Part shown: positions 1 to 53,139 of the stretch, one piece after another
How positions within the stretch are numbered: the first letter of the stretch is position 1
How the letters are laid out: every line of letters starts with the position of its first letter
NCBI GenBank assembly: GCA_003597935.1
Contig: QZJT01000059.1
Coordinates: 1 to 64,000, forward strand
Direction: 5' to 3'
DNA from: Phycisphaerales bacterium
GTDB taxonomy: Bacteria; Planctomycetota; Phycisphaerae; UBA1845
DNA length: 64,000 nucleotides
The notes under the pieces: model-generated
Told to the model about the DNA's origin: nothing
The model's database searches: none
What the model saw: only the letters and a program-made list of their open reading frames with translations
Position numbers and translations under genes: made by a program

Positions 1-1479
1 GTGCGCCTGACCTGCTTCGACAAGCGCGTCTGCATCGTCGAGCGTCATGAGCAGTTCGGCGGGCTGAACTCGTTTTATCGCCTCGACGGCCGGCAATTCG
101 ACGTCGGCCTGCACGCCCTGACCAACTACGTTCCCCCCGGCGTCCGTAGCGCTCCGCTGCCCAAGCTCTTGCGCCAGCTCCGCATCCCCCGCGATGAGTG
201 GGACCTGCACGAACAGACCTGGTCGGAGGTGCGCTTCCCGCACCATCGGCTGCGGTTCAGCAACGACGTTTCGTTGCTGGTGTCACAGGTGGCCGAGGTC
301 TTTCCCCGCCAGGCCGACGGATTCGTCCGGCTGGTCGAGTTCGCCCGCGGATACGACGACGTCTCGCTGCACGCGCCGTGGCGATCGACCCGGCAGGCAC
401 TGGCCGCCTTCCTGTCCGACCCGACCCTCATCGACATGATTCTGTGCCCGGTGATGTACTATGGCAGCGCCGAAGAGCACGACCTGGACCTCACCCACTT
501 CGTCACGATGTTCAAGAGCCTGTTCCTCCAGGGGCTGGCGCGCCCGCGCGGCGGCGTGCGCACGATCATCTCGTCGCTGGTGCGCAGGTTTCGCGCGCAG
601 GGCGGCCAGTTCCGGATGAAGTGCGGGGTCACGCGGCTGGTGGTGGACGACGGGCGGGTGCGGGCGGTGGCGCTGGAGACGGGAGAGGTGCTCACGGCGC
701 CGATCGTGTTCTCCTCGGCCGGCTACCACGAGACGATGGCGCTCTGCCCCGCCGGCGAGCCGCGGGCTTCAGCCCGCGCGGAGCCGCCGGCGCGCTGTGC
801 CAGCGAGCCGCGGGCTTCAGCCCGCGCGGAGCCGCCGGTCCGCACGGAGACCCCGTCGGCCGTCGAGGCTTCCACCGCACTCAGCGCTGGCACGCCGGGG
901 CAGCGGCAGGGCTCGGATGCCCCTCCCGACGTCCCCGGCGTACTCTCTTTCGTCGAATCCATCTGCGTGCTGAACTGCCTGCCGAAGACGCTCGGACACG
1001 AATCGACCATCACCTTCTTCAACCACGCGGATACGTTTGAGTACGCCTGCCCGGCCGAGCCGGTCGACGTTCGCAGCGGCGTCATCTGCTGCCCCAGCAA
1101 TTTCGAGCGCCATGACGACGTGGCGGAGGGCGTCATCCGGTTCACGTCGCTGGCGCGGGCGGACGCGTGGGAAAGCTTCCCCGAAGAGGAGTATCGCCGG
1201 CAGAAACAGGTCTGGCACGAGCGCGTCGTCGAGCAGGCGCTGCGGTACCTGCCGGACTTCCGCCCGCACGTGGTCTACACCGATACCTTTACACCCCGCA
1301 CGATCCGCCGCTACACCAGCCACCTCGGCGGCGCCGTCTACGGCGCCCCGCGGAAACGCCGCGACGGCCGCACGCCGATCGAGAACCTCTTCATCTGCGG
1401 GACGGACCAGGGGTTTCTCGGTATCATCGGAGCGTGCTTGAGTGGCATAACGGTGGCGAATCTGTATGGCTTGGAATAG
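1..1479 (+). CDS. FAD-dependent oxidoreductase, phytoene-desaturase (CrtI/COG1233)-like; 5' partial at window edge; carries an in-frame repeat-derived insert
   Basis: N-terminal FAD-binding region (CIVERHEQFGGLNSFYRLDGRQFDVGLH). C-terminal region is paralogous to the ORF at 2528-4003. Stop TAG at 1477-1479. Confidence 0.8.
   Translation: MRLTCFDKRVCIVERHEQFGGLNSFYRLDGRQFDVGLHALTNYVPPGVRSAPLPKLLRQLRIPRDEWDLHEQTWSEVRFPHHRLRFSNDVSLLVSQVAEVFPRQADGFVRLVEFARGYDDVSLHAPWRSTRQALAAFLSDPTLIDMILCPVMYYGSAEEHDLDLTHFVTMFKSLFLQGLARPRGGVRTIISSLVRRFRAQGGQFRMKCGVTRLVVDDGRVRAVALETGEVLTAPIVFSSAGYHETMALCPAGEPRASARAEPPARCASEPRASARAEPPVRTETPSAVEASTALSAGTPGQRQGSDAPPDVPGVLSFVESICVLNCLPKTLGHESTITFFNHADTFEYACPAEPVDVRSGVICCPSNFERHDDVAEGVIRFTSLARADAWESFPEEEYRRQKQVWHERVVEQALRYLPDFRPHVVYTDTFTPRTIRRYTSHLGGAVYGAPRKRRDGRTPIENLFICGTDQGFLGIIGACLSGITVANLYGLE
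757..838. repeat. Two tandem copies (48-bp period) of the GC-hairpin dispersed repeat, reverse orientation, inside the CDS. Translated in frame as [27 protein letters not shown].
   Basis: gagccgcgggcttcagcccgcgcggagccgccgg occurs at 757-790 and 805-838. The reading frame stays open. Oxidoreductase-like sequence resumes downstream. Confidence 0.8.
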
Positions 1480-1512
1480 CGAATAACGAACGTCGAATGT
1501 CGAATAACGGAT
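1480..1512. repeat. Heptamer-period array (GAATAGC GAATAAC GAACGTC GAATGTC GAATAAC) immediately 3' of the oxidoreductase stop
   Basis: Direct reading of the sequence; 7-nt periodicity GAANNNC. Confidence 0.6.
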
Positions 1513-1572
1513 GGAGGGCCGTCTGAGCGAGCCGCGTGGCTTTAGCCCGGGCGGAGTTTCAAGCGGGAGTGG

Positions 1573-2527: not shown

Positions 2528-4003
2528 ATGATCGCCAACAACACCAAACTCCAACGCCGCCCCAACCGCCTTGACGGCTGCAGGGATTACTACGACGTCA
2601 TCGTCATCGGCAGCGGGCTGGCGGGGCTGACCGCCGCCAACTGCCTGGCCAAGTGCGACCGCAGCGTGCTGCTGGTCGAGCAGCACTACAACTTCGGCGG
2701 GATGGCCACCTGGTTCCGCCGGCCGGGCGGGTACATCTTCGACATCTCGCTGCACGGCTTTCCCGTCGGCATGATCAAAAGCTGCAAGCGCTACTGGACG
2801 CGCGAGATCGCCGACTCCATCCGCCAGCTCACGGGCATCCGTTTCGACAACCCGCAGTTCCAGCTCGACACCACGTTCGACCGCGATGACTTCACGCGCA
2901 TTCTCATAGAACGTTTCGGCATCACGGCGGAAACGGTCGAGTTCTTCTTCGAGACCGTCCGCAGGATGGACTTCTATGACGACCAGTCCATGACCACGCG
3001 CGAGCTGTTTCAACAGTTCTTCCCCGGACGGCTGGACGTGTGGCGGCTGCTGATGGAGCCGATCGCGTACGCCAACGGCTCGACCCTCGACGACCCGGCC
3101 ATCACCTACGGCATCGTGTTTTCCAACTTCATGAGCAAGGGCGTGTACATCTTCGGCGGCGGTACGGACAAGCTCATCCAGCAGATGAAGGAGGAGTTGA
3201 AACGCAACGGCGTCGATCTGCGGCGTCAGGTGGAGGTGGACGAGATCCTCATCGACCGCGGCCGCGCGGTCGGCGTCGTCGCCAACGGCCGGCGCATCCG
3301 CTGCGCGGCCGTACTGTCCAACGCGAACCTGAAGACGACCATCGAAAGAATGGTCGGCCCGCAGCACCTCGATCGCGAGTTCCTGGCCCAGGCCCGGGCG
3401 GTGCGCCTGAACAACAGCAGTTGTCAGGTCTATATCGGTATCCGCCCGGGCGAGTCGATCCCCTACGTCGGCGATCTGATCTTCAGCTCGACTCATCCGG
3501 TGTTCGATTCCGATGCCCTTTGCGCTAAGAACGTCACCAGCCGCACGTTTTCGATCTATTACCCCGACATGCGGCCGGAGCTGAACCGATACGCCGTGGT
3601 GTCATCTACGAACGCCAACTACCACGACTGGGCGGGGCTGTCGCGCGAGCAGTACGAACACGACAAGCAGGAGATGATCGAATCCACGCTAGCGGGGTTG
3701 GAGAAATACATCCCCGGCTGCCGCGACATCATCGACCACGTCGAGGCCGCCACGCCCGCGACCTTCGAGCACTACACCCGGCAGGCCGCCGGCGCCACCT
3801 TCGGCACCAAGTTCGAAGGCCTGCAAGTCAGCATGGACCTGCCCAGGCAGGTCCCCGGCCTCTTCCACGCAGGCTCCGTCGGCATCATCATGTCCGGCTG
3901 GCTGGGAGCGATCAATTACGGGGTCATTGTGTCGAACGAGGTGGACAGTTATCTGCTGTCCGAAGCGACGGCGAGAGCGGGGAGAATAGCGAACGGCGAA
4001 TAG
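2528..4003 (+). CDS. FAD-dependent oxidoreductase, phytoene-desaturase (CrtI/COG1233)-like; paralogue of the ORF at 1-1479
   Basis: [21 protein letters not shown] dinucleotide-binding motif. C-terminus [19 protein letters not shown] is like the CrtI family. The in-frame ATG at 2528 avoids overlap with the upstream gene; 2489 is an alternative start. Confidence 0.85.
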
Positions 4004-4017
4004 CGAATAACGAATGA
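3984..4017. repeat. Heptamer array (GAATAGC GAACGGC GAATAGC GAATAAC GAATGAA) that also encodes the last codons and the stop of the oxidoreductase
   Basis: Direct reading; same GAANNNC heptamer family as at 1480-1512. Confidence 0.6.
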
Positions 4018-4080
4018 AGAACACGGCGGTACTGTGAACGACAATCGGAGCCGCGACCGTGAGGGAGCGGCTTCTGTGAT

Positions 4081-4130
4081 CGAATGTCGAATGTCGAATG
4101 TCGAATGTCGAATGTCGAATGTCGAATGTC
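4081..4130. repeat. Perfect tandem heptamer array, (CGAATGT) x7
   Basis: cgaatgtcgaatgtcgaatgtcgaatgtcgaatgtcgaatgtcgaatgtcgaacgg. Confidence 0.9.
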
Positions 4131-4467
4131 GAACGGCGAGAGGTAACACGAATCCGCATCCGACGCCCCGGAGGGGCGCAGGAGTGTAGCCGCGGGTGGA
4201 GCGCAGCCGCCGACAGGCGGCGCAGCGGAACCCGTGGTAGCGATCTCCTTTCCCCCCCCGCCCCGGAGGGGCGGAGGCAGCGCACGGTAGCTGTACTGCG
4301 CACCGCGCGCCGCCTCGCACGCCGGGCGGAGGCGGCACGAGACGCGGATCGCGTCGCCGGCCCGAGCTGCGCACGAAACTCGGGGCCAGATGGACCCTGG
4401 GATTCACGGCGCTTCACGCCGTCGCAGCATCAGCGAGCCTCGCCCACACAGCCGCGTGCGCGACGCC

Positions 4468-6445: not shown

Positions 6446-7298
6446 CGCGGCGCAGCGTGACAGCCGCGAATGCGGCGCAGGGCGGCGGCCGCGGATGCGC
6501 AGGGCCGTAGCCGCGGATGCGCAGGGCCGCAGCCGCGAATTCGGCCCAGTGGTGTAGCCGCGAACGCGGCGCAGGGCTGTAGCCGCGGGTGAGTCCGTCT
6601 TCGGACGAACCCGCGGACAGCCGGACCCCGAAGACCCCGGGGAGCCGCGAAGCGGCGAAGGAACTCGCGGGAGCTACGTCGCTCAGAGGATGAAACGGGC
6701 CTCCGCGTGCGCACCGAAGGAGAACGCGAGGTTTCGACCCATACGGATGGTGCGATCCGTGCTGCGGCGCCGCCTCGCGCGCCGACGCTTCCGTCGCCGC
6801 TGCGCGGCTCAGCGGATGGGGGGGGCCGCACGATCCGTGGGTTCGCCCGCAGACGGGCTTCACCCGCGGCTACAGCCCTTGGGCCGCGTCGCGGCCGCAG
6901 AGCGCAGCGGGCGTCCCGTACGCCCTGACTCGCGGATATCTCCAGTCGCTGACTCGCGGATCTCCCCAACCCCTGACATGCGGATATCTTCGATTCCTGT
7001 CTCCCGTGGGCAGGCTCGGGCGCCCTATGGACTCCATGGACTTGATGGACCTGCTGGGAGTAGCCCCAGGCACGCTGTGGAGATCATCTCGTCGACGGTG
7101 ATCGTCTCTGCGAAGGGAGTTCCGCGCGGGCTGAAGCCTCGCGGCTCGCTGGGCAACCGCGGGGATGGTGTCACGCGCCTTCTCATGCCCTCCTACGGGG
7201 CGTGATTCTGCCGCCGCCCCGCGGTATGGTATTCCGCCGGCAGGCGGCCGGCGAAATCACCGCACGCGCCGTCGTGCCACGCCCGGCGAGTAAGACGC
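6446..7298. repeat. Repeat-dense 850-bp non-coding region. It holds about 25-bp GCGCAGGGC-CGTAGCCGCGGAT tandem units, a CTGACTCGCGGATATCTCC x3 array, ATGGAC nonamers, one GC-hairpin repeat copy (7121-7151) and a long-range inverted repeat (about 6576-6592 against 6845-6885).
   Basis: Direct reading. No ORF with protein-like composition; ORF-track translations here are low-complexity R/A/P strings. Confidence 0.6.
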
Positions 7299-9432: not shown

Positions 9433-9999
9433 ATGTTCGCTCGCCTGCTGCTTTTGTTCACCGTCGTTCCGTTGGTGGAGCTGATGATCCTGCTGCGGCT
9501 GGGCGAGTGGATGGGCTGGCAGTCCACGCTCGGCCTGGTGCTGCTGACCGGGGTGATCGGCGCGGCCCTGGCGCGGCGGGAGGGGTTTCGGACGCTGTCG
9601 CGGATTCGGGGGGAACTGTCGCGCGGGGCGACCCCGGCCGGTGAACTGGTGGACGCGGCCATGATCTTCGTAGCCGCCGCGCTGCTGGTCACGCCGGGCG
9701 TCCTGACGGACCTGGCCGGGTTCCTGCTCCTGATCCGGCCGTGCCGACGGGGTCTGCGGGCCTGGCTGGGGCGGCGCTTCGCAGAGCGAATCAGGATCGT
9801 ACACGAGAGCAGTGTCGCCCACAGCGGCGGGTACGGTAGCGGCGGGTTCGGCGACGGCGGCTACGGCAGCAGCGAGCACCACGGCGCTGGAGCGCATAGC
9901 GGCGAGCAACGCGCCGGCGGGCAGCAAGGGGGTAGGACGCCCCGCGTCGAGATCATCGATGTCGAGGCGACGTCAAATGGAGCAACGGACACCGGGTGA
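9433..9999 (+). CDS. fxsA: FxsA family cytoplasmic membrane protein
   Basis: MFARLLLLFTVVPLVELMILLRLGEWMGWQSTLGLVLLTGVIGAALARREG matches the FxsA N-terminal signature. Gly-rich C-terminal tail. Confidence 0.8.
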   Translation: MFARLLLLFTVVPLVELMILLRLGEWMGWQSTLGLVLLTGVIGAALARREGFRTLSRIRGELSRGATPAGELVDAAMIFVAAALLVTPGVLTDLAGFLLLIRPCRRGLRAWLGRRFAERIRIVHESSVAHSGGYGSGGFGDGGYGSSEHHGAGAHSGEQRAGGQQGGRTPRVEIIDVEATSNGATDTG

Positions 10000-10024
10000 A
10001 TGGCCAGCAGGGACCTAATGGACG

Positions 10025-10203
10025 GCATGGACTCTATGGACAGTATGGACTTCATGGACAATATGGACAATATGGACTTTATAGACTCAATGGACTGACT
10101 GGACGCCGTGACTCCTGTCCATCCTGTCCATCAAGTCCATACTGTCCATAGAGTCCATGCTGTCCACGAAGCTCATTCGGCCCATGCCGCCCATCACCCG
10201 GGC
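10025..10203. repeat. Nonamer array with an ATGGAC core: about 10 direct NNNATGGAC units followed by about 9 inverted NNNGTCCAT units, giving a 180-bp imperfect palindrome
   Basis: ggcatggactctatggacagtatggacttcatggacaatatggacaatatggac ... ctgtccatcctgtccatcaagtccatactgtccatagagtccatgctgtccac. Confidence 0.85.
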
Positions 10204-11107: not shown

Positions 11108-11229
11108 ACGAACGGGCGGCCTCGGAGGGCGCTCACGTCGGCTTGCGCGATTCGCAGTCTCCGCCAGAAGCAACCTCCGCGCGGCTTGGAGCCCGCGGCT
11201 TGCTCCCCGCCCATCATCGCGCAAGGCGT

Positions 11230-12566: not shown

Positions 12567-12647
12567 TGGTCTGTCTCCGTGTGATGGCGCCACTGTACCA
12601 ACTCGGCCGCGACGATGGGAGAGCGAGAGTCGGATCACGCACGCGCG

Positions 12648-12840
12648 GCATGGACGGCATGGACGGCATGGACGGCATGGACAGCATGGACAGCATGGAC
12701 AGCATGGACAGCAAGGACAGCATGGACTCCGGCCGCGCCGTGGATCGTCCGTGCATTCCGTGCGGTCCATTCAGTCCATCAAGTCTATTCAGTCCATCAA
12801 GTCCATTCAGTCCATCAAGTCCATTCAGTCCATCAAGTCC
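12648..12840. repeat. Nonamer array with an ATGGAC core: 10 direct units (GCATGGACG/GCATGGACA), a 35-bp spacer, then 8 inverted units (TCCATTCAG/TCCATCAAG)
   Basis: Direct reading. Same core and direct-then-inverted architecture as the 10025-10203 array. Confidence 0.85.
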
Positions 12841-12850
12841 GTCTAGCCCA

Positions 12851-15085
12851 TCAGTCCGGGCTCCCTCCCCCAGCGGGCGCATCGTCCGGCGCCGCCATGC
12901 CCAGTTCCGCCATCAGGAACGTCCATTTCATCGCGTCCTCGCGCAGGATGCCGCGGATCGGCTTGCTGGCGCCCAGGCCGGACCGGATCAGCGTGTGGCA
13001 CAGCGCCGTCGCGCCGGTCGACTTGCCCACCGCCTGCAAGCGGGCGGCCAGCTTCCAGGCGTGCAGCGTGCCGATCTGGTCGTCGGCCTGATCCGTCAGG
13101 ATCAGCGCCGACGGGTACTCTCGCCCATCCTTGACGTTGTGTGCCGGCGACAGCCGCGCCAGGCGCGAGGCGTCCGCCGGGTCCGACGGATCGCCCAGCA
13201 GGGCGTGCAGACGGCGGGCCGCCGGAACCTGGTCGAAGCGGAGCAGATCCGCCACCGGGCCGTCGAAGACCGCCGCCGCCGCCAGTTCGGGGCGGCGTGT
13301 CATCAGCGCCAGCGCCGGCAGCGACGATACGCCGGTCCCGCCAACCGCCAGCCTCTGCGGACGGGTGAACTTGTCTTCGATCAGCTTGCGGGCCGCGGCC
13401 TCGAAATCTGAGACCGACCGCTCGACCTTCGCCCCCAGTCCGGCACGGCGCCAGTCGCGATCGCCGGTGTTGTCGCCGCGCGTGCGGGCGATGGCGATGA
13501 CGCCGCCCCGCTGCACCCACGGGATCATGGACGCGTCGAAGGCGGGTGGATCGGTCGCCGGATCCTCCTTGTAGGGTCGCAGCAGCGTCGGGTTGTTACC
13601 GTCGCGCTGAAGGTCCTTGCGGTGCACCAGTCGGATGGGGATGACCGTGCCGTCGTCGGCCCTCGCTTCGATCTCGTAGTCGGCGTAAAGGCTGGTGTCG
13701 GCCTTCACCTCCCGCTGCCAGTAGCGCTCCAGCGCCCGGTCGCGGATGTTGTAGCGGTAGTTGGCGGGCGGCGTGTCGAACGCCTCGCAGGCGATGTACA
13801 CGTCCGGGTCGTTCCAGTGACCGTGCAGGTCGGTGACCACCAAACCCGGGGGAAGAGGGATCTCCAGGATGAACTCCCCGCCCAGGGTGTACACGTGCAG
13901 TTTCGAATAGCCGTCCTCGGTGTAGTGAAGCACCAGCTTGCGGTTGGCGATCAGGAGCGACCGCAGCACCCCGCTGCGCTGCGGAATCACCTCATTCCAG
14001 CGCGCCCGGTCCAGCTCGGTGGCCGGCGTCGAGAGCAACCGTCCGCGCGGCGCCTGATCATCGGTCAGAATGAAGACCCGCCCTTCGAAGACGTCGACCT
14101 CGAAGCGGGCGTCCACGCCCTTGACCAGCGGCACGAAGCCCTGCTCCGACGGGCACGGCCGCAGGAAGACGTCGTGGCTCAACTCGTCGCGCGACGCGCG
14201 GACGATGGTGTAGAGCGTGTCCGCGGAGGCGCTCACCTCCAGGCTGGTCCGCGGGTCGTCCGCCGTGAACACGACGCGATCGCGGCCGGCCGCCCCGCCG
14301 CTGCGGTGATAGACGACGTGCTGCAGTTGCAAGTCCGTCGTCTCGAGGTCGTCGCCTGCGTCGCCCGGGCGGGGCGGGGCGCCACGGCGCACGTAATGGT
14401 AGCCGCGCTGATCCGGGTCCCACGCCAGGTAGAACGTGGACGGGCGACCCGCGGTGACGTTCTCGAAGATCCGCGTGTGGTAGGGGTTGCACACCTGCCT
14501 GGAGAGATAGACCTCGGAGGCGTGATCCAGCCCGCTGGTCAGATCGCGGATCATGACGTTGCTGGCGTCGTCACCCCTCCGCGATGTCCCGTAGGCCACG
14601 GTGGCGCCGTCCCACGTGGGAAAGGCCCAGTCGATCGAGACCGACCCGTCGCGGCTGAGGACGTTCGGATCCAGCACCACGCGGTCTTCGCCCATCACGC
14701 CGCCGGCGCGCCGGATGTAGAGCGGCTGATCCTGCAGGCCGCGGCGCTTCCAGAGGAAATACTGGCTGCCGTAACGTTGCGGCGCCGACTCCGAGTCGCT
14801 GTCGAACAGCGCCTCCAGCTCGCTGAGGACCGCCGAATGAGTGGCGGCGTAGCGACCGAGAAACTGCCGCACCTCCGCGTTCTGTGCCGCCACCCACGTG
14901 ATGACTTCCGTCGTTCCGGCCTCTTCCAGCCATTGATAGGGGTCGGCGACGCGGGCCCGGCCGGCGTCGATCGTCGCGTCCACCACCCGGGTGGCAGGGG
15001 GGGCGGCCGCCGCCGGCGCGCCGATGAGCAACGCCGTCGCCAGCACGGTGCGGTATCCTCCGATGAACTCTTCTGCACTTCGCAT
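12851..15085 (-). CDS. Prolyl oligopeptidase (S9A) family homologue, secreted; catalytic triad apparently not conserved (probable pseudoenzyme)
   Basis: DPYQWLEE N-terminal hallmark, beta-propeller plus alpha/beta hydrolase body. Signal peptide after the ATG at 15085. Canonical GGSNGG reads GGTGVS and canonical KAGHGAG reads RSGLGAS. Confidence 0.8.
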   Translation of the reverse strand: MRSAEEFIGGYRTVLATALLIGAPAAAAPPATRVVDATIDAGRARVADPYQWLEEAGTTEVITWVAAQNAEVRQFLGRYAATHSAVLSELEALFDSDSESAPQRYGSQYFLWKRRGLQDQPLYIRRAGGVMGEDRVVLDPNVLSRDGSVSIDWAFPTWDGATVAYGTSRRGDDASNVMIRDLTSGLDHASEVYLSRQVCNPYHTRIFENVTAGRPSTFYLAWDPDQRGYHYVRRGAPPRPGDAGDDLETTDLQLQHVVYHRSGGAAGRDRVVFTADDPRTSLEVSASADTLYTIVRASRDELSHDVFLRPCPSEQGFVPLVKGVDARFEVDVFEGRVFILTDDQAPRGRLLSTPATELDRARWNEVIPQRSGVLRSLLIANRKLVLHYTEDGYSKLHVYTLGGEFILEIPLPPGLVVTDLHGHWNDPDVYIACEAFDTPPANYRYNIRDRALERYWQREVKADTSLYADYEIEARADDGTVIPIRLVHRKDLQRDGNNPTLLRPYKEDPATDPPAFDASMIPWVQRGGVIAIARTRGDNTGDRDWRRAGLGAKVERSVSDFEAAARKLIEDKFTRPQRLAVGGTGVSSLPALALMTRRPELAAAAVFDGPVADLLRFDQVPAARRLHALLGDPSDPADASRLARLSPAHNVKDGREYPSALILTDQADDQIGTLHAWKLAARLQAVGKSTGATALCHTLIRSGLGASKPIRGILREDAMKWTFLMAELGMAAPDDAPAGGGSPD

Positions 15086-18527: not shown

Positions 18528-18783
18528 TCCGACGACCTCCCGCCCCGTTGCCCCCGGCCCGCGCGGACCACCGTCCACACCTTGCTCAAGTTTACACCGG
18601 GGGGCGCGGTGTGGCCATTACAAAGAACGGCCGGCGCGGATAACCATCGGAGGGAAAGGCCAGTGACAGCCGAGCGTCAGCCATAGGGCGCGCGTGTTCC
18701 CGCGCCGCCAGCGAGCCGCGGGTTTAACGCCCGCGCGGAAGTGCGGTCCGGGGCTCCGGCTGCCCGGTTCCCCGGCTGGCGGA

Positions 18784-25345: not shown

Positions 25346-25451
25346 CCCCTGGGACTGCCAGGCTCCAGCCTGGCGGCGCGGGGAAAAGCGTCGGCGGCTT
25401 GAAAACGCATCAACCGGGAAGCTCCGCGCGGGCTTCAAGCCCGCTGGTCGC
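25346..25451. repeat. Composite MITE-like dispersed element (CCTGGGACTGCCAGGCTCCAGCCTGGCGGC ... CTCCGCGCGGGCTTCAAGCCCGCTGG)
   Basis: Same two-part architecture as the copies at 38841, 39787 and 44049. Confidence 0.6.
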
Positions 25452-25472
25452 TTAGTGGAGCCCGCGGTTCCG

Positions 25473-35522: not shown

Positions 35523-36512
35523 ATGGACTTGAGCACGAACTATCTGGGGTTCCACCTGAAGACGCCGCTGGTGGCCGCCGCGTCACCCATGTCGCGCGAC
35601 GCAGGAGCGGTGCGGGCGATGGAAGACGCCGGCATCGCGGCGGTGGTGATGTACTCGCTGTTCGAGGAGCAGATCGCCCAGGAGGCTTCCGCCCACGATC
35701 ACTTCGTCGAGTTCGGCGCGGAGAGCTTCGCCGAGTCGCTGACGTACGCCCCGCCGATCGAGGACTTTCCTCGCGGGCCGGTCGAGTACGTCGAGCACGT
35801 CCGGCGGCTGAAGGAGTCGGTCGACATCCCGATCATCGCCAGCCTGAACGGCGCCACGCCCGGGGGCTGGACGCGCTACGCCGCCGAACTGGAACAGGCC
35901 GGGGCCGACGCCATCGAGCTGAACGTCTACCTGCTGGCGACCGACCCGGAGACGACCGCCCAGCAGATCGAGCAGCGCCACCTGGAGATCCTGGCGGCGG
36001 TGAAGGAGTGCGTCCGCGTCCCGGTGGCGATGAAACTGGGGGCCCAGTTCACGGCGCTGGCGAACTTCGCCCGCCAGCTCGACCGGCACGGCGTGGACGG
36101 GCTGGTGCTGTTCAACCGCTTCTATCAGCCGGACGTCGACCTGGACAACCTGGAGGTGACGCCGCAGTTGGACTTCAGCGCCCGCCACGAGCTGCGCCTG
36201 CCGCTGCGCTGGATCGCCGTGCTGGATCCGATCGTGGAGGCGAGCCTGGCGGCCACCACCGGCGTGTACGACTACCAGGACGTACTCAAACTGATGATGG
36301 TGGGGGCGGACGCGGCCATGATGTGCGCCGCCCTGCTGACCGGCGGACCGCAAGTCGCGACGCGGGTGCTCAACAACATGCGCGAGTGGATGGAAGAGCA
36401 CGAGTACGAGAGCGTCAAGCAGATGCAGGGCAGCATGAACCTGGCGACCTGTCCCGACCCGGGGGCGTTCGAGCGGGCCAATTATATGAAAGCACTGGCG
36501 TCGTATGTGTGA
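35523..36512 (+). CDS. Dihydroorotate dehydrogenase-like (class 1 TIM-barrel) protein lacking the canonical active-site motif
   Basis: LKTPLVAAASPMS and GADAIELN match the DHOD fold. The expected ELNLSCPN reads ELNVYLLATD, so there is no catalytic Cys/Ser. Immediately downstream of PFOR. Confidence 0.75.
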   Translation: MDLSTNYLGFHLKTPLVAAASPMSRDAGAVRAMEDAGIAAVVMYSLFEEQIAQEASAHDHFVEFGAESFAESLTYAPPIEDFPRGPVEYVEHVRRLKESVDIPIIASLNGATPGGWTRYAAELEQAGADAIELNVYLLATDPETTAQQIEQRHLEILAAVKECVRVPVAMKLGAQFTALANFARQLDRHGVDGLVLFNRFYQPDVDLDNLEVTPQLDFSARHELRLPLRWIAVLDPIVEASLAATTGVYDYQDVLKLMMVGADAAMMCAALLTGGPQVATRVLNNMREWMEEHEYESVKQMQGSMNLATCPDPGAFERANYMKALASYV

Positions 36513-36517
36513 AAAGA

Positions 36518-36645
36518 GGTTGACGGTTGGAAGGTTGAAGGTTGCAAGGTTGAAGGTTGCAAGGTTGAAGGTTGTAAGGTTGAAGGTTGTAATGTTCTAA
36601 GGTTGTAAGGTTGAAGGTTTTGAGGTTGGAGGGTTGAAGGTCGAC
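36518..36645. repeat. Tandem array with a 15-bp period (GGTTGAAGGTTGYAA)
   Basis: aaggttgaaggttgcaaggttgaaggttgcaaggttgaaggttgtaaggttgaaggttgtaa... Confidence 0.8.
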
Positions 36646-36682
36646 GGGCGAATGATGGGTACGGAATGGACGGGGTGCAGGC

Positions 36683-38730: not shown

Positions 38731-38840
38731 CGCACTCGCCTCCGCCGGGGGCTGTCAGATTATCTGCGCGGCGAAGGGTCGAATCAAGCCGGGCGGGTCT
38801 ACCGGGGCAGATGGGAGTGCGTGAGCCTATGGGCGGACCA

Positions 38841-38948
38841 CCTGGGATCGCCAGGCTCCAGCCTGGCGGCCGCACCAACGCGGCACCCACTCAGAGAACG
38901 GCATTCGAATGGGAGATCCACGCGGGCTTCAGGCCACGCGGCTTGCTT
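38841..38948. repeat. Composite MITE-like element copy, 12 bp from the vapC stop
   Basis: cctgggatcgccaggctccagcctggcggc ... cgcgggcttcaggccacgcggcttgc. Confidence 0.6.
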
Positions 38949-39760: not shown

Positions 39761-39922
39761 GGGTGCGTGACACAATCGGCGGTCCCCCTGGGATCGCCAG
39801 GTTCCAGCCTGGCGGCTGCGGGACTGTCGCGTCCGCTCAGAAAGCGGTACCCAAGTCGGGACTCCGCGCGGGCTGAAGCCACGCGGCTCGCTCAGATGCC
39901 CCGCCGATTGTGTCACGCACCC
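39761..39922. repeat. Composite MITE-like element (39787-39897) bounded by a perfect 22-bp inverted repeat GGGTGCGTGACACAATCGGCGG (39761-39782) / CCGCCGATTGTGTCACGCACCC (39901-39922)
   Basis: Exact reverse-complement match of the two 22-mers, read directly from the sequence. Confidence 0.7.
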
Positions 39923-40977: not shown

Positions 40978-43194
<2,217 letters not shown>

Positions 43195-43198
43195 TCAG

Positions 43199-43402
43199 TG
43201 TGGCACCGGCTTCCAGCCGGTGGACCCCCGCACGAATGCGGGGGCACTGCATGTGGCACCGGCTTCCAGCCGGTGTCTTCGTGTGGCACCGGCTTCCAGC
43301 CGGCGTCCTCGTGTGGCACCGGCTTCCAGCCGGCGTCCTCGTGTGGCACCGGCTTCCAGCCGGCGTCCTCGTGTGGCACCGGCTTCCAGCCGGTGTCTTC
43401 GC
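43199..43402. repeat. Tandem array of a 23-nt hairpin repeat GTGGCACCGGCTTCCAGCCGGYG with 7-nt linkers (30-bp period, 6 copies) plus one 30-bp variant unit with a CCCCCGCACGAATGCGGGGG hairpin
   Basis: Direct reading. Each unit is self-complementary (CACCGGCT-TCC-AGCCGGTG). Lies in the leader between the TPP riboswitch and thiC. Confidence 0.9.
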
Positions 43403-43799
43403 CCTGAAGGGGCGGCGGCTCGTTGCCACGGGTGGAGCGAAGCGGGACCCGTGGAAAACGGCGCCCCCACGCCCTCCCGCCCCGAGGGGGCGGAGGAGGC
43501 CGCGCAGTATCGGTGTCGACGCCGTCAGGCATAGCTTCCGAAACACAGAGTGGCTGATGGCTGAACCATGCGCGGCGGACCGCTCCATCATGACCTGCGG
43601 GAACAAAAGCGGCGAGCGCCTCCTCCGCCCCATCCGGGGCGGCTGATTGCAATACCCGGCGATCCACGGGTTGCGCTTCGCTTCACCCGTGGCTACACTC
43701 CTCGGCCCCTTCGGGGCCCGCAGATTCGACACTCGGATTGAGCGGGAGACTCGAGCCGGCGCGGCGGCGACGCGCCGGCACGGGCAGGTGCGGCGAGGC

Positions 43800-43910
43800 G
43801 TCGCTTCCCTACGCAGGCTTCAGCGCCGCGGCCGCGCCGCGACGCCCTCCTGATCAGGTTCCAAGGCTCATCTCTCAGCCCGTCAACCCGGCGGGCACAC
43901 CTAGCGACAC
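43800..43910 (-). promoter_or_regulatory. TPP (THI-box) riboswitch aptamer upstream of thiC
   Basis: Minus-strand RNA reads ...GGUGUGCCCGCCGGGUUGACGGGCUGAGAGAUGAGCCUUGGAACCUGAUCAGG...CCUGCGUAGGGAAGCGA. It has the conserved GGGUGCCC-like, CUGAGA, ACCUGAUC and GCGUAGGGAA blocks in the right order, with an extended GC-rich P5 insert. Confidence 0.8.
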
Positions 43911-44048
43911 CCTTGTCTTAGCGCGGCGGCCTGCTTTCGTCAAGCGCCTACGCAGACGCCCGATCCGTCAATCGGCGGCCGGGATCGTCGCTGCGCATCG
44001 GCGGGCTTCCGAGACGCGGTAACCGTGCGGTGTATGTGTTCCGGCGCG

Positions 44049-46402: not shown

Positions 46403-46541
46403 ACACGCTGGATCACCGTGCTCCACGTGCAGCCGCGTCGAAACCAGAGAATCCGCGCGGGCTGAAGCCCGCGGCTCGCTGGCGGCGCCGGATGGCGGTC
46501 AGTGACTTGGAAGTGACGAGCGGAATCGACGAGGTGGTTCC

Positions 46542-49685: not shown

Positions 49686-49784
49686 CGCCGCGCGGGCTTC
49701 AAGCCCGCCGCTCGCTGCTGCTGCGAACCGTACGCCCGTCTCAGGCGGAGCGTCCGCGCGGGGCTGAAGCCCGCGGCTCGCTGG
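49686..49784. repeat. Two copies of the GC-hairpin dispersed repeat (49686-49717 and 49752-49784)
   Basis: cgccgcgcgggcttcaagcccgccgctcgctg; gtccgcgcggggctgaagcccgcggctcgctgg. Confidence 0.8.
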
Positions 49785-52773: not shown

Positions 52774-53120
52774 TCCCGGCTTGAAGGGCGGGGATCGGAG
52801 GGGGGGGGTGTACACCCGTCCTCAGAGCCCCGGCATTCATGCCGGGAGTTCCGGCGGCGTGTGATCACACGTTTCCGCTCGGGACGCGATTCTCCGAGCA
52901 ACTCCCGCCTTGAAAGGCGGGGCTCTGGGGGACAGCGCACACGCTCGCGACGATCCGCCCGCCTTGAAAGGCGGGGCTCGGGGGGACAGCGCGCACGCTC
53001 GCGAGGAGTTGGGCGCGGTGAATGGCGGGGCGCGGAGCCGGGCGGGATAACGGCGAGCCGGGCGGGATAACGGCGAGCCGGGCGGGATAACGGCGAGCCG
53101 GGCGGGATAACGGCGAGCCG
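52774..53120. repeat. Two arrays: about 45-bp units with a CCCGCCTTGAAAGGCGGG hairpin (52774-53010), then a perfect (GGCGGGATAACGGCGAGCCG) x4 array (53041-53120) that ends 20 bp before the MATE start codon
   Basis: Direct reading of the sequence. Confidence 0.85.
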
Positions 53121-53139
53121 GCCGCTACAATCTCCGCCC

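Follow-up and report, generated by a model that had tools for sequence, protein, structure and literature searches.

A dispersed hairpin repeat of Phycisphaerae read in-frame within thiC and a CrtI-like oxidoreductase gene: evidence for probable insertion

A 64,000-nucleotide stretch of the Phycisphaerales bacterium contig QZJT01000059.1 (positions 1 to 64,000; the whole stretch is called the window here) raises the question of how one short hairpin sequence came to be read in the same frame within two protein-coding genes, thiC and the open reading frame (ORF) of a CrtI-like oxidoreductase, ORF1. A preliminary description of the window, made from the letters of the sequence, had taken the hairpin for a mobile repeat inserted in-frame into both genes. 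The analysis reported here supports the core of that description, a dispersed hairpin secondarily inserted in-frame into two real genes, in that the same DNA is found between genes in the window and in at least 33 species. [quoted passage not shown]

The window as a whole has a base composition of 67% G+C. It contains three exact occurrences of the 27-mer GAGCCGCGGGCTTCAGCCCGCGCGGAG, at 757-783(+), 805-831(+) and 42421-42447(−), and a fourth with a single mismatch at 46451-46477(−), while no occurrence is expected (100 dinucleotide-preserving shuffles). The core of the repeat is predicted to fold into a 7-bp G+C stem with a 4-nucleotide (nt) TTCA loop, an extra outer stem being predicted for the first ORF1 copy, and the element has a consensus of ~30 nt, (A)GC-GAGC-CGCGGGC-TTCA-GCCCGCG-CGGA. 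Copy 1 in ORF1 (754..783, +) is read as the codons GGC GAG CCG CGG GCT TCA GCC CGC GCG GAG, and copy 2 (802..831, +), read as AGC GAG ... GAG, lies 48 nt past copy 1, with the 3' flank GCCGCCGG common to both. In thiC, a full copy (42421..42452, −; CC AGC GAG CCG CGG GCT TCA GCC CGC GCG GAG) stands directly downstream of a partial left-arm copy at about 42456..42478 (−), which is CCAGCGAGCCGCGAGGTTCCG, 21 nt or 7 codons, and reads SEPRGSA. As the preliminary description had it, the repeat runs along the coding strand in the same direction in both ORFs, and it is likewise read in the same frame, (S)EPRASARAE. Its claim of uninterrupted translation was also correct: neither ORF 1-1479(+) nor ORF 40978-43161(−) contains a stop codon or a frameshift in the repeat.

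ORF1 (1..1479, +) encodes a CrtI-like NAD(P)/FAD-dependent oxidoreductase with homologues down to E 1e-242 and a match to Pfam Amino_oxidase; the window edge removes about 44 N-terminal residues, the dinucleotide-binding motif among them. Its family profile matches CrtI (4DGK, E 1e-16) and CrtD (4REP, E 1e-15), and the same two structures are the top Foldseek matches (E ~5e-19) of its AlphaFold2 model, which has a predicted local distance difference test score (pLDDT) of 87.9 and a predicted template modelling score (pTM) of 0.87. By sequence similarity and predicted fold, ORF1 is a CrtI/phytoene-desaturase-like FAD oxidoreductase; it is uninterrupted and has kept every residue that does not vary across an alignment of 120 sequences. 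The repeat copies lie in an expanded loop (residues 250-314; 748..942, +), delimited by homologue alignment and the AlphaFold2 model, that follows the motif AGYxETMxLC and measures 65 residues versus 10-14 in 80 of the 120 homologues, its length being hypervariable. Residues ~250-310 form the sole low-confidence segment of the model (pLDDT 35-58, with both flanks above 90), and the insert is predicted to be disordered, the only such segment of the protein. The two copies have 39 nt in common with one mismatch (752-790 versus 800-838) and a spacing of 48 nt, or 16 codons; because the common stretch includes a private 3' flank, this arrangement suggests local duplication, and the copies are probably a local tandem duplication. 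The remainder of the insert, 839-942, matched no other sampled sequence.

Two features adjoin the oxidoreductase gene. Tandem arrays of 7/14-nt units (GAATGTC / GAATAGC) lie directly past the stop codons of both paralogous oxidoreductase genes of the window (1474-1513, 3977-4030 and 4068-4135). Between the paralogues lies a 313-codon ORF (1573-2514, +) without a Pfam match, in which the G+C content of third codon positions (GC3) is 0.66 (neighbours ~0.87); because the related contig L002 has the two paralogues side by side, it may be an acquired gene.

The second host, thiC (phosphomethylpyrimidine synthase; 40978..43161, −), was found to be intact, with 727 codons, by homologue search, Pfam and alignment. 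Its product is 100% identical to the NCBI-annotated 727-residue ThiC of a Phycisphaerales metagenome-assembled genome, matches Pfam ThiC_Rad_SAM over residues 192-688, insert included (E 2e-186), and matches the solved Caulobacter ThiC, 3EPM, at E 7e-280; it keeps all invariant columns of a 120-sequence alignment and has the C-terminal CX2CX4C cluster motif. Between IRENQ and GESFGA the window ThiC has 64 residues versus 11-28 (mostly 14) in 119 other ThiCs, and the whole lineage-specific insert, the 44 residues R224-G267 (42361..42492, −; 132 nt), is absent at that site from 119 of 119 homologues. Residues 219-277 (59 residues) stand where Caulobacter ThiC has residues 159-164 (6 residues). 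The insert had been described as replacing a short linker of ThiC; the Caulobacter alignment and the homologue lengths show the element to have been added inside the linker instead. The repeat sites themselves had been located correctly in both genes, but the foreign segments around them are larger than described, ~44 residues in ThiC and ~50-55 in the oxidoreductase. That the ThiC site is exposed at the surface is argued on two grounds, how it aligns with the solved Caulobacter ThiC and how much its length varies among homologues.

At the DNA level the thiC repeat consists of one full copy and a 21-nt partial left-arm duplication. The thiC copy has ~54-64 nt in common with the intergenic copy at 46432-46498, at 89-91% identity including the flanks, and thiC 42402-42485 corresponds to an extended element that is also present there; 42361-42401 matched no other sampled sequence. 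The same order of partial left arm and, 21 nt later, full copy as in thiC 42421-42478 is found independently in the AlaRS gene of the sampled locus L031 (L031:1355-1416). In addition, L081:4293-4366 is 85% identical over 76 nt to the partial-plus-full arrangement of thiC. This recurring arrangement could be a propagating subfamily or a repeated slippage product.

Other features were noted in and around thiC. The protein has a second lineage-specific expansion, rich in proline and alanine, at residues 76-108 (42838-42936, −), where it has 41 residues versus 15-21 in most homologues; no recognisable repeat was found inside it. Upstream of thiC, ~630 nt before its start codon, positions 43789-43912(−) match the aptamer of the thiamine pyrophosphate (TPP) riboswitch at 45.7 bits (E 1.5e-7), less than the 54.3 that Rfam sets as its gathering score; the P3 region of this candidate aptamer contains 30 inserted nt. 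The leader from the candidate to thiC is crowded with repeats: the hairpin CACCGGCTTCCAGCCGGTG recurs there as a tandem array of six 30-nt units (43198-43431), and 43675-43717 form a hairpin of the GTAG type.

Orthologues of both proteins show whether the segments are ancestral. As the preliminary description had anticipated, alignment to orthologues shows for both genes that conserved sequence resumes on both sides of the insert and that the insert is lineage-specific. The closest orthologue of the oxidoreductase (P0122, 74% identity, GCA_964648365.1) has in the same loop two tandem copies of a different hairpin, TGTGGCACCGGyTTnCAnCCGGTG, whose family occurs in the window at intergenic sites only (43198-43431). 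The loop of P0171 holds two copies of CGCGCAGGCTAAAGCCTGCGGCTC, a member of the same superfamily as the window element in the opposite orientation and with a compensated G:C to A:T change in the stem, and in P0205 and two relatives the loop holds an inverted dimer read in another frame (QRAAGFS...). Among the ThiCs, P0037 and P0064 contain the identical DNA core (24/24 and 26/26 nt), read as EPRASARA, at a different ThiC site, and P0042 has yet another hairpin-bearing insert. These insertions, independent of one another and found at further sites and in further genes, point to insertion and not to ancestry, and indicate that repeated occurrence of the DNA element, rather than old protein sequence, accounts for the recurring peptide. 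The preliminary description had named two findings that would speak against insertion, the same peptide as ancestral sequence in distant orthologues and a gene split at the insert. Orthologues instead showed the identical element at another ThiC site and other hairpins in the oxidoreductase loop, and both ORFs are uninterrupted with their invariant residues retained. The analysis also weighed an intein or intron as the source and rejected it, since the segment measures a mere ~130-165 nt, shows no such motifs and gave no Rfam match.

Inserts in the oxidoreductase loop are not confined to these cases, as ~40 of the 120 homologues carry some insert there, which marks the loop as a recurrent landing site. 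Many homologues (e.g., P0128, P0144 and P0214) have peptides of the SPSPRPSPWEGEG / PSPLKGEG type in this loop, which look like translations of another widespread hairpin repeat.

The element itself is widespread. A scan of a single genome for each species located the exact 26-mer in no fewer than 98 stretches; they belong to at least 33 assemblies, nearly all of which bear the label Phycisphaerae, Phycisphaerales or Planctomycetota. Conservation over 107 copies is confined to C-GAGCCGCGGGCTTCAGCCCGCGCGGA and a weak 3' c.c.Cg (consensus with flanks: c..a.C-GAGCCGCGGGCTTCAGCCCGCGCGGA-c.c.Cg), and when a longer element was sought around the core, conservation between genomes extended over no more than ~27-31 nt. 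The consensus of the 107 copies with their flanks has no GTAG/CGTC terminal tag on either strand. Among 67 distinct variants the stem covaries, with 46 double changes that keep pairing versus 9 that lose it, while the GAGC/CGGA flanks and the loop are conserved; because stem positions covary, the hairpin is under constraint. In other genomes 30 sense versus 12 antisense copies lie within 200 nt past a stop codon (median 33 nt), and the usual home of the element is intergenic DNA just past stop codons, in the sense orientation.

The window copies have the same distribution. A looser search, for AGCGAGCCGCG followed by the hairpin, gives ~14-16 family members per 64 kb, about a dozen of them intergenic: 7 are sense and 13-110 nt past a stop codon, 3 are antisense and 2 lie upstream of a tRNA gene. 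The closest intergenic relative of the thiC copy (46451..46482, −) occupies the gap that separates a sigma-70 gene from the following one. Sense copies are found at 1526..1557(+), 47 nt past the ORF1 stop codon, at 25423..25452(−), ~20 nt past a stop codon, at 38916..38947(−), 13 nt past the stop codon of a PIN-domain gene, and at 39861..39892(−), ~21 nt past a stop codon. Copies at 49687..49716(−) and 49753..49784(−) lie upstream of the same tRNA gene, the copy at 7120..7152(−) has a single 1-nt insertion in its stem, a diverged copy at 11174..11204(−) is flanked by convergent genes, and the repeat-family search located a further copy at 18708..18740(+).

The copies at 38916..38947 and 39861..39892 form part of a composite repeat of ~110 nt (38817-38928 and 39763-39874, also near 25346 and 44049), which consists of GTGACACnATCGGCGG, a hairpin of the EPRASARA type and a second hairpin, CGCCAGGCTCCAGCCTGGCG, and is found downstream of small toxin-antitoxin-like genes (PIN, DUF433/DUF5615). 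Another repeat family of the window does carry a GTAG tag (..TGTAGCCGCGnnnGCGGC..; 6448-6591, 6860-6895 and 4165-4207); because the TGTAGCCGCGnnnGCGGC family bears the classical REP signature, this genome harbours hairpin families with a GTAG tag alongside others without one.

Copies with up to 4 mismatches were called intragenic when the frame was open for at least 60 codons on both sides and both flanks showed the GC3>GC1>GC2 signature of codon positions. By this measure 19 of 168 copies (~10%) are intragenic. Hosts confirmed by Pfam comprise an IleRS-type class I synthetase, AlaRS, CysRS (with three tandem copies), SelB and the glycine-cleavage P protein (GcvP), together with a hydantoinase/oxoprolinase, an ArsP permease, a UbiE methyltransferase, a TPR membrane protein (two copies) and an Fe-S protein. 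When each tandem array is counted once, and the window copies and the two ThiCs known from protein alignment are left out, there are 12 independent events, of which 10 use the sense EPRASARA frame, 1 another sense frame and 1 the antisense strand. Of the core's six frames only one is closed, and 10 of 12 events in one frame would have P ~2e-5 under equal use of the five open ones. The frame-0 peptide is the sole translation that lacks L, F and W and carries no net charge, and selection at the level of the peptide would be the simplest cause of the frame bias. The sense bias of the intragenic copies parallels that of the intergenic ones. A hairpin scan inside window genes returned only ordinary GC-rich palindromes and no repeat-family members.

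No target-site duplication was consistent across 14 intragenic junctions, with one possible case, L014. In this ArsP-family permease gene (L014:581-680) the element lies between the direct repeats GCCGG(C/T)TCGTGCTGC, which place the peptide AGSCC on each side; this direct repeat represents a target duplication of 15 nt or, alternatively, a Cys motif that is native and repeated.

We propose a model in which the hairpin would spread by transposition as single-stranded DNA through a trans-acting enzyme, similar to the REP-associated tyrosine transposases (RAYTs) or to those of IS200-IS605, that makes no target duplication. Mobilisation of the hairpins by such an HUH-type enzyme would fit the sharp ends of the element, its conserved flanks with a covarying stem and the lack of target duplications in the sequences compared. 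An occasional copy would land in coding sequence, and those surviving selection would have a length that is a multiple of three, no stop codon and a position in a permissive surface loop or linker. The surviving element would be translated as a short, polar, net-neutral, disordered (S)EPRASARA(E/D) peptide, the enzyme still working, and later growth of the insert may occur by local slippage, giving the 48-nt tandem duplication in the oxidoreductase gene and the 21-nt partial duplication in thiC. The inserts are presumably neutral to their hosts, and the strong preference for one frame suggests that the encoded (S)EPRASARA(E/D) peptide is under selection.

Several observations weigh against this model. 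A heuristic six-frame scan for the HUH plus Y..NP motifs of RAYT/Y1 transposases gave 0 matches in the window and about 100 loci (~8 kb each, ~0.8 Mb), and Pfam found no Y1_Tnp among ten window ORFs. The databases yielded no empty-site allele, the nearest ThiC being 73-83% and the nearest oxidoreductase 74-79% identical, and because they contain no close relative without the inserts, the mobility and recency of the element are what we infer from the comparisons above. Recognisable repeat makes up only about half of each insert, 839-942 and 42361-42401 being unmatched. The AlphaFold2 model of ThiC is poor (16-sequence alignment, mean pLDDT 45.8) and gives no direct view of surface exposure. Finally, the bias of 10 of 12 events to one frame and the exact conservation of the 26-mer in many species exceed what neutral junk would predict, which leaves room for function.

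Such a function would make the element a selected module, either a portable linker or tag peptide or a regulatory hairpin in mRNA or DNA that would, for example, pause ribosomes, bind an RNase or a protein, or serve as a topology signal. This explanation is unlikely, although it would account for the use of one of five open frames in 10 of 12 events, for the 11 of 12 that are sense, for the persistence of the exact 26-mer in at least 33 species, for a stem whose covariation marks the structure as constrained, for the preference of intergenic copies for the sense strand near stop codons, and for the enrichment of translation-related hosts (three aminoacyl-tRNA synthetases and SelB). The hosts, however, are functionally unrelated, the insert sites are not conserved between orthologues, the majority of which have no insert at all, and the oxidoreductase loop accepts unrelated hairpin families and other frames; the frame bias would be explained more simply by a frame-0 peptide without bulky hydrophobic residues and with zero net charge. 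It is comparably improbable that the single prevailing orientation and frame, the exact 26-mer of dozens of species and the enriched translation-related hosts mark the element as a domesticated module, be it a portable disordered peptide cassette or an intragenic RNA/DNA hairpin signal, or point to an insertion mechanism that is sensitive to codon phase or to the direction of transcription or translation. Spread under the same selection filter but without a transposase, through hairpin-promoted template switching, microhomology-mediated repair or gene conversion, with occupied loops attracting more repeats, is conceivable though somewhat doubtful. It agrees with the absence of a transposase from the window and sampled flanks, with the lack of a GTAG/CGTC tag and of target-site duplication, with the frequency of local arrays that are tandem, partial or inverted (48-, 42- and 21-nt periods; an inverted dimer in L106) and with the repeated entry of different families into the oxidoreductase loop. 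Near-identical, sharp-ended copies of 26-30 nt at hundreds of unrelated sites in many species are harder to obtain in this way; such dispersal is expected of an enzyme recognising the GAGC...CGGA flanks and the hairpin, and the transposase search covered a small part of any genome.

If the segments were ancestral or convergent low-complexity linkers, their likeness to the intergenic repeat would be coincidental; both sites are naturally variable in length and rich in P, A, S, R and E, and part of each insert has no repeat match, but the exact identity of 27 nt of DNA between intragenic and intergenic copies, where 0 are expected by chance, the lack of the ThiC insert at its site in 119 of 119 homologues and the presence of identical DNA elsewhere in other ThiCs make this extremely improbable. 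An assembly or binning artefact, or decay of both genes into pseudogenes, is very unlikely too. The contig was assembled from a metagenome and short repeats can confuse assemblers, yet reads and k-mers are longer than an element of ~30 nt, neither ORF is interrupted or has lost an invariant residue of the 120-sequence alignments, NCBI annotates the 727-residue ThiC as intact, and equivalent in-frame inserts are present in many independent assemblies from different studies.

Tandem arrays of other kinds were noted elsewhere in the window. Two inverted arrays of 9-nt units (ATGGACnnn; 9989-10203 and 12630-12869), ~2.4 kb apart, bracket a DUF423 gene, gatC and a 560-codon ORF without a clear family. 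More tandem arrays lie at 53015-53134 and 36508-36655, made up of five 20-nt units of GAGCCGGGCGGGATAACGGC and of 8/15-nt AAGGTTG units.

The in-frame insertion of the Phycisphaerae hairpin has several implications. Decoration of essential enzymes with in-frame repeats is not peculiar to Rickettsia and is common in a free-living, GC-rich phylum, in which ThiC, three aminoacyl-tRNA synthetases, SelB and GcvP share the same 10-residue cassette. For the annotation of planctomycete genomes, the inserts lengthen proteins and create spurious low-complexity regions; they also flag permissive loops that are usable in protein engineering. The repeat family amounts to a natural experiment on the tolerance of proteins to random peptide insertion, in which the one-frame bias and the repeatedly entered oxidoreductase loop offer testable handles on selection versus mechanism.

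Comparable insertions have been reported in other bacteria. Di Nocera et al. (2013, PMC3733652) listed intragenic REPs from Opitutus terrae, Thauera, Stenotrophomonas and other bacteria, of which O. terrae belongs to the Verrucomicrobia, in the same PVC superphylum as the planctomycetes, and the planctomycete REPs GTAG-20/21 of R. baltica were found in short hypothetical ORFs (PMC3733652). Intragenic cases of the enterobacterial repetitive intergenic consensus (ERIC) and of miniature transposable elements with inverted repeats (MITEs) have been reviewed in PMC10969869. The preliminary description had likened the two inserts to the Rickettsia palindromic elements (RPEs) and had called this mode of tolerated insertion rarely described outside Rickettsiales; the likeness in mode holds, but in view of these reports (PMC3733652, PMC10969869) the rarity was overstated.

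Like the intragenic REPs, the Phycisphaerae element is a GC-rich imperfect palindrome of 20-40 nt, dispersed in hundreds of copies and mostly located just downstream of genes (PMC3733652), and it occurs as singles, tandems and inverted dimers. As with REPs, a minority of copies lie wholly inside conserved ORFs, where they add ~10-30 residues, and the hosts include tRNA synthetases. It differs from REPs in having a conserved flank, (C)GAGC...CGGA, in place of the GTAG/CGTC tag, and in that no RAYT was found for it in the window and the ~0.8 Mb of sampled flanks. The family and its hosts are not in the REP survey (PMC3733652), no report of a one-frame bias for REPs was found in the searchable literature, and the same literature yielded no description of this Phycisphaerae family or its frame bias. 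The likeness to intragenic ERIC and MITE fusions (Delihas 2007, cited in PMC10969869) lies in small size, non-autonomy, an occurrence both inside and outside genes and frames that stay open across the repeat; MITEs, however, have terminal inverted repeats and target-site duplications and measure 70-300 bp, whereas the Phycisphaerae element shows no terminal inverted repeats other than its hairpin and no consistent duplications, its conservation ending at the hairpin flanks.

With RPEs the element has in common a palindrome placed in-frame in unrelated housekeeping genes, a recurrent peptide, hosts presumed to be functional and inserts that fit the fold (Ogata et al. 2000 via PMC10969869, PMC3733652). 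The coding form RPE-1 is ~100-150 bp long and encodes ~30-50 residues, versus ~30 nt and ~10 residues here; length and host set the element apart from RPE-1 to RPE-10, and no sequence relationship is claimed, similarity to the RPE consensus not having been computed. Unlike the RPEs, which inhabit a reduced, AT-rich intracellular genome, it resides in a free-living, GC-rich planctomycete, and its copies are mostly intergenic. Because it has no GTAG/CGTC tag and is far shorter than RPE-1, we file it as neither REP nor RPE: it works like the RPEs and the intragenic REPs and is a member of neither family. The finding is solid and broader than the preliminary description had taken it to be. In-frame palindromic inserts were already known from Rickettsia and from REPs, and those described here are new for this bacterial group and not a new category.

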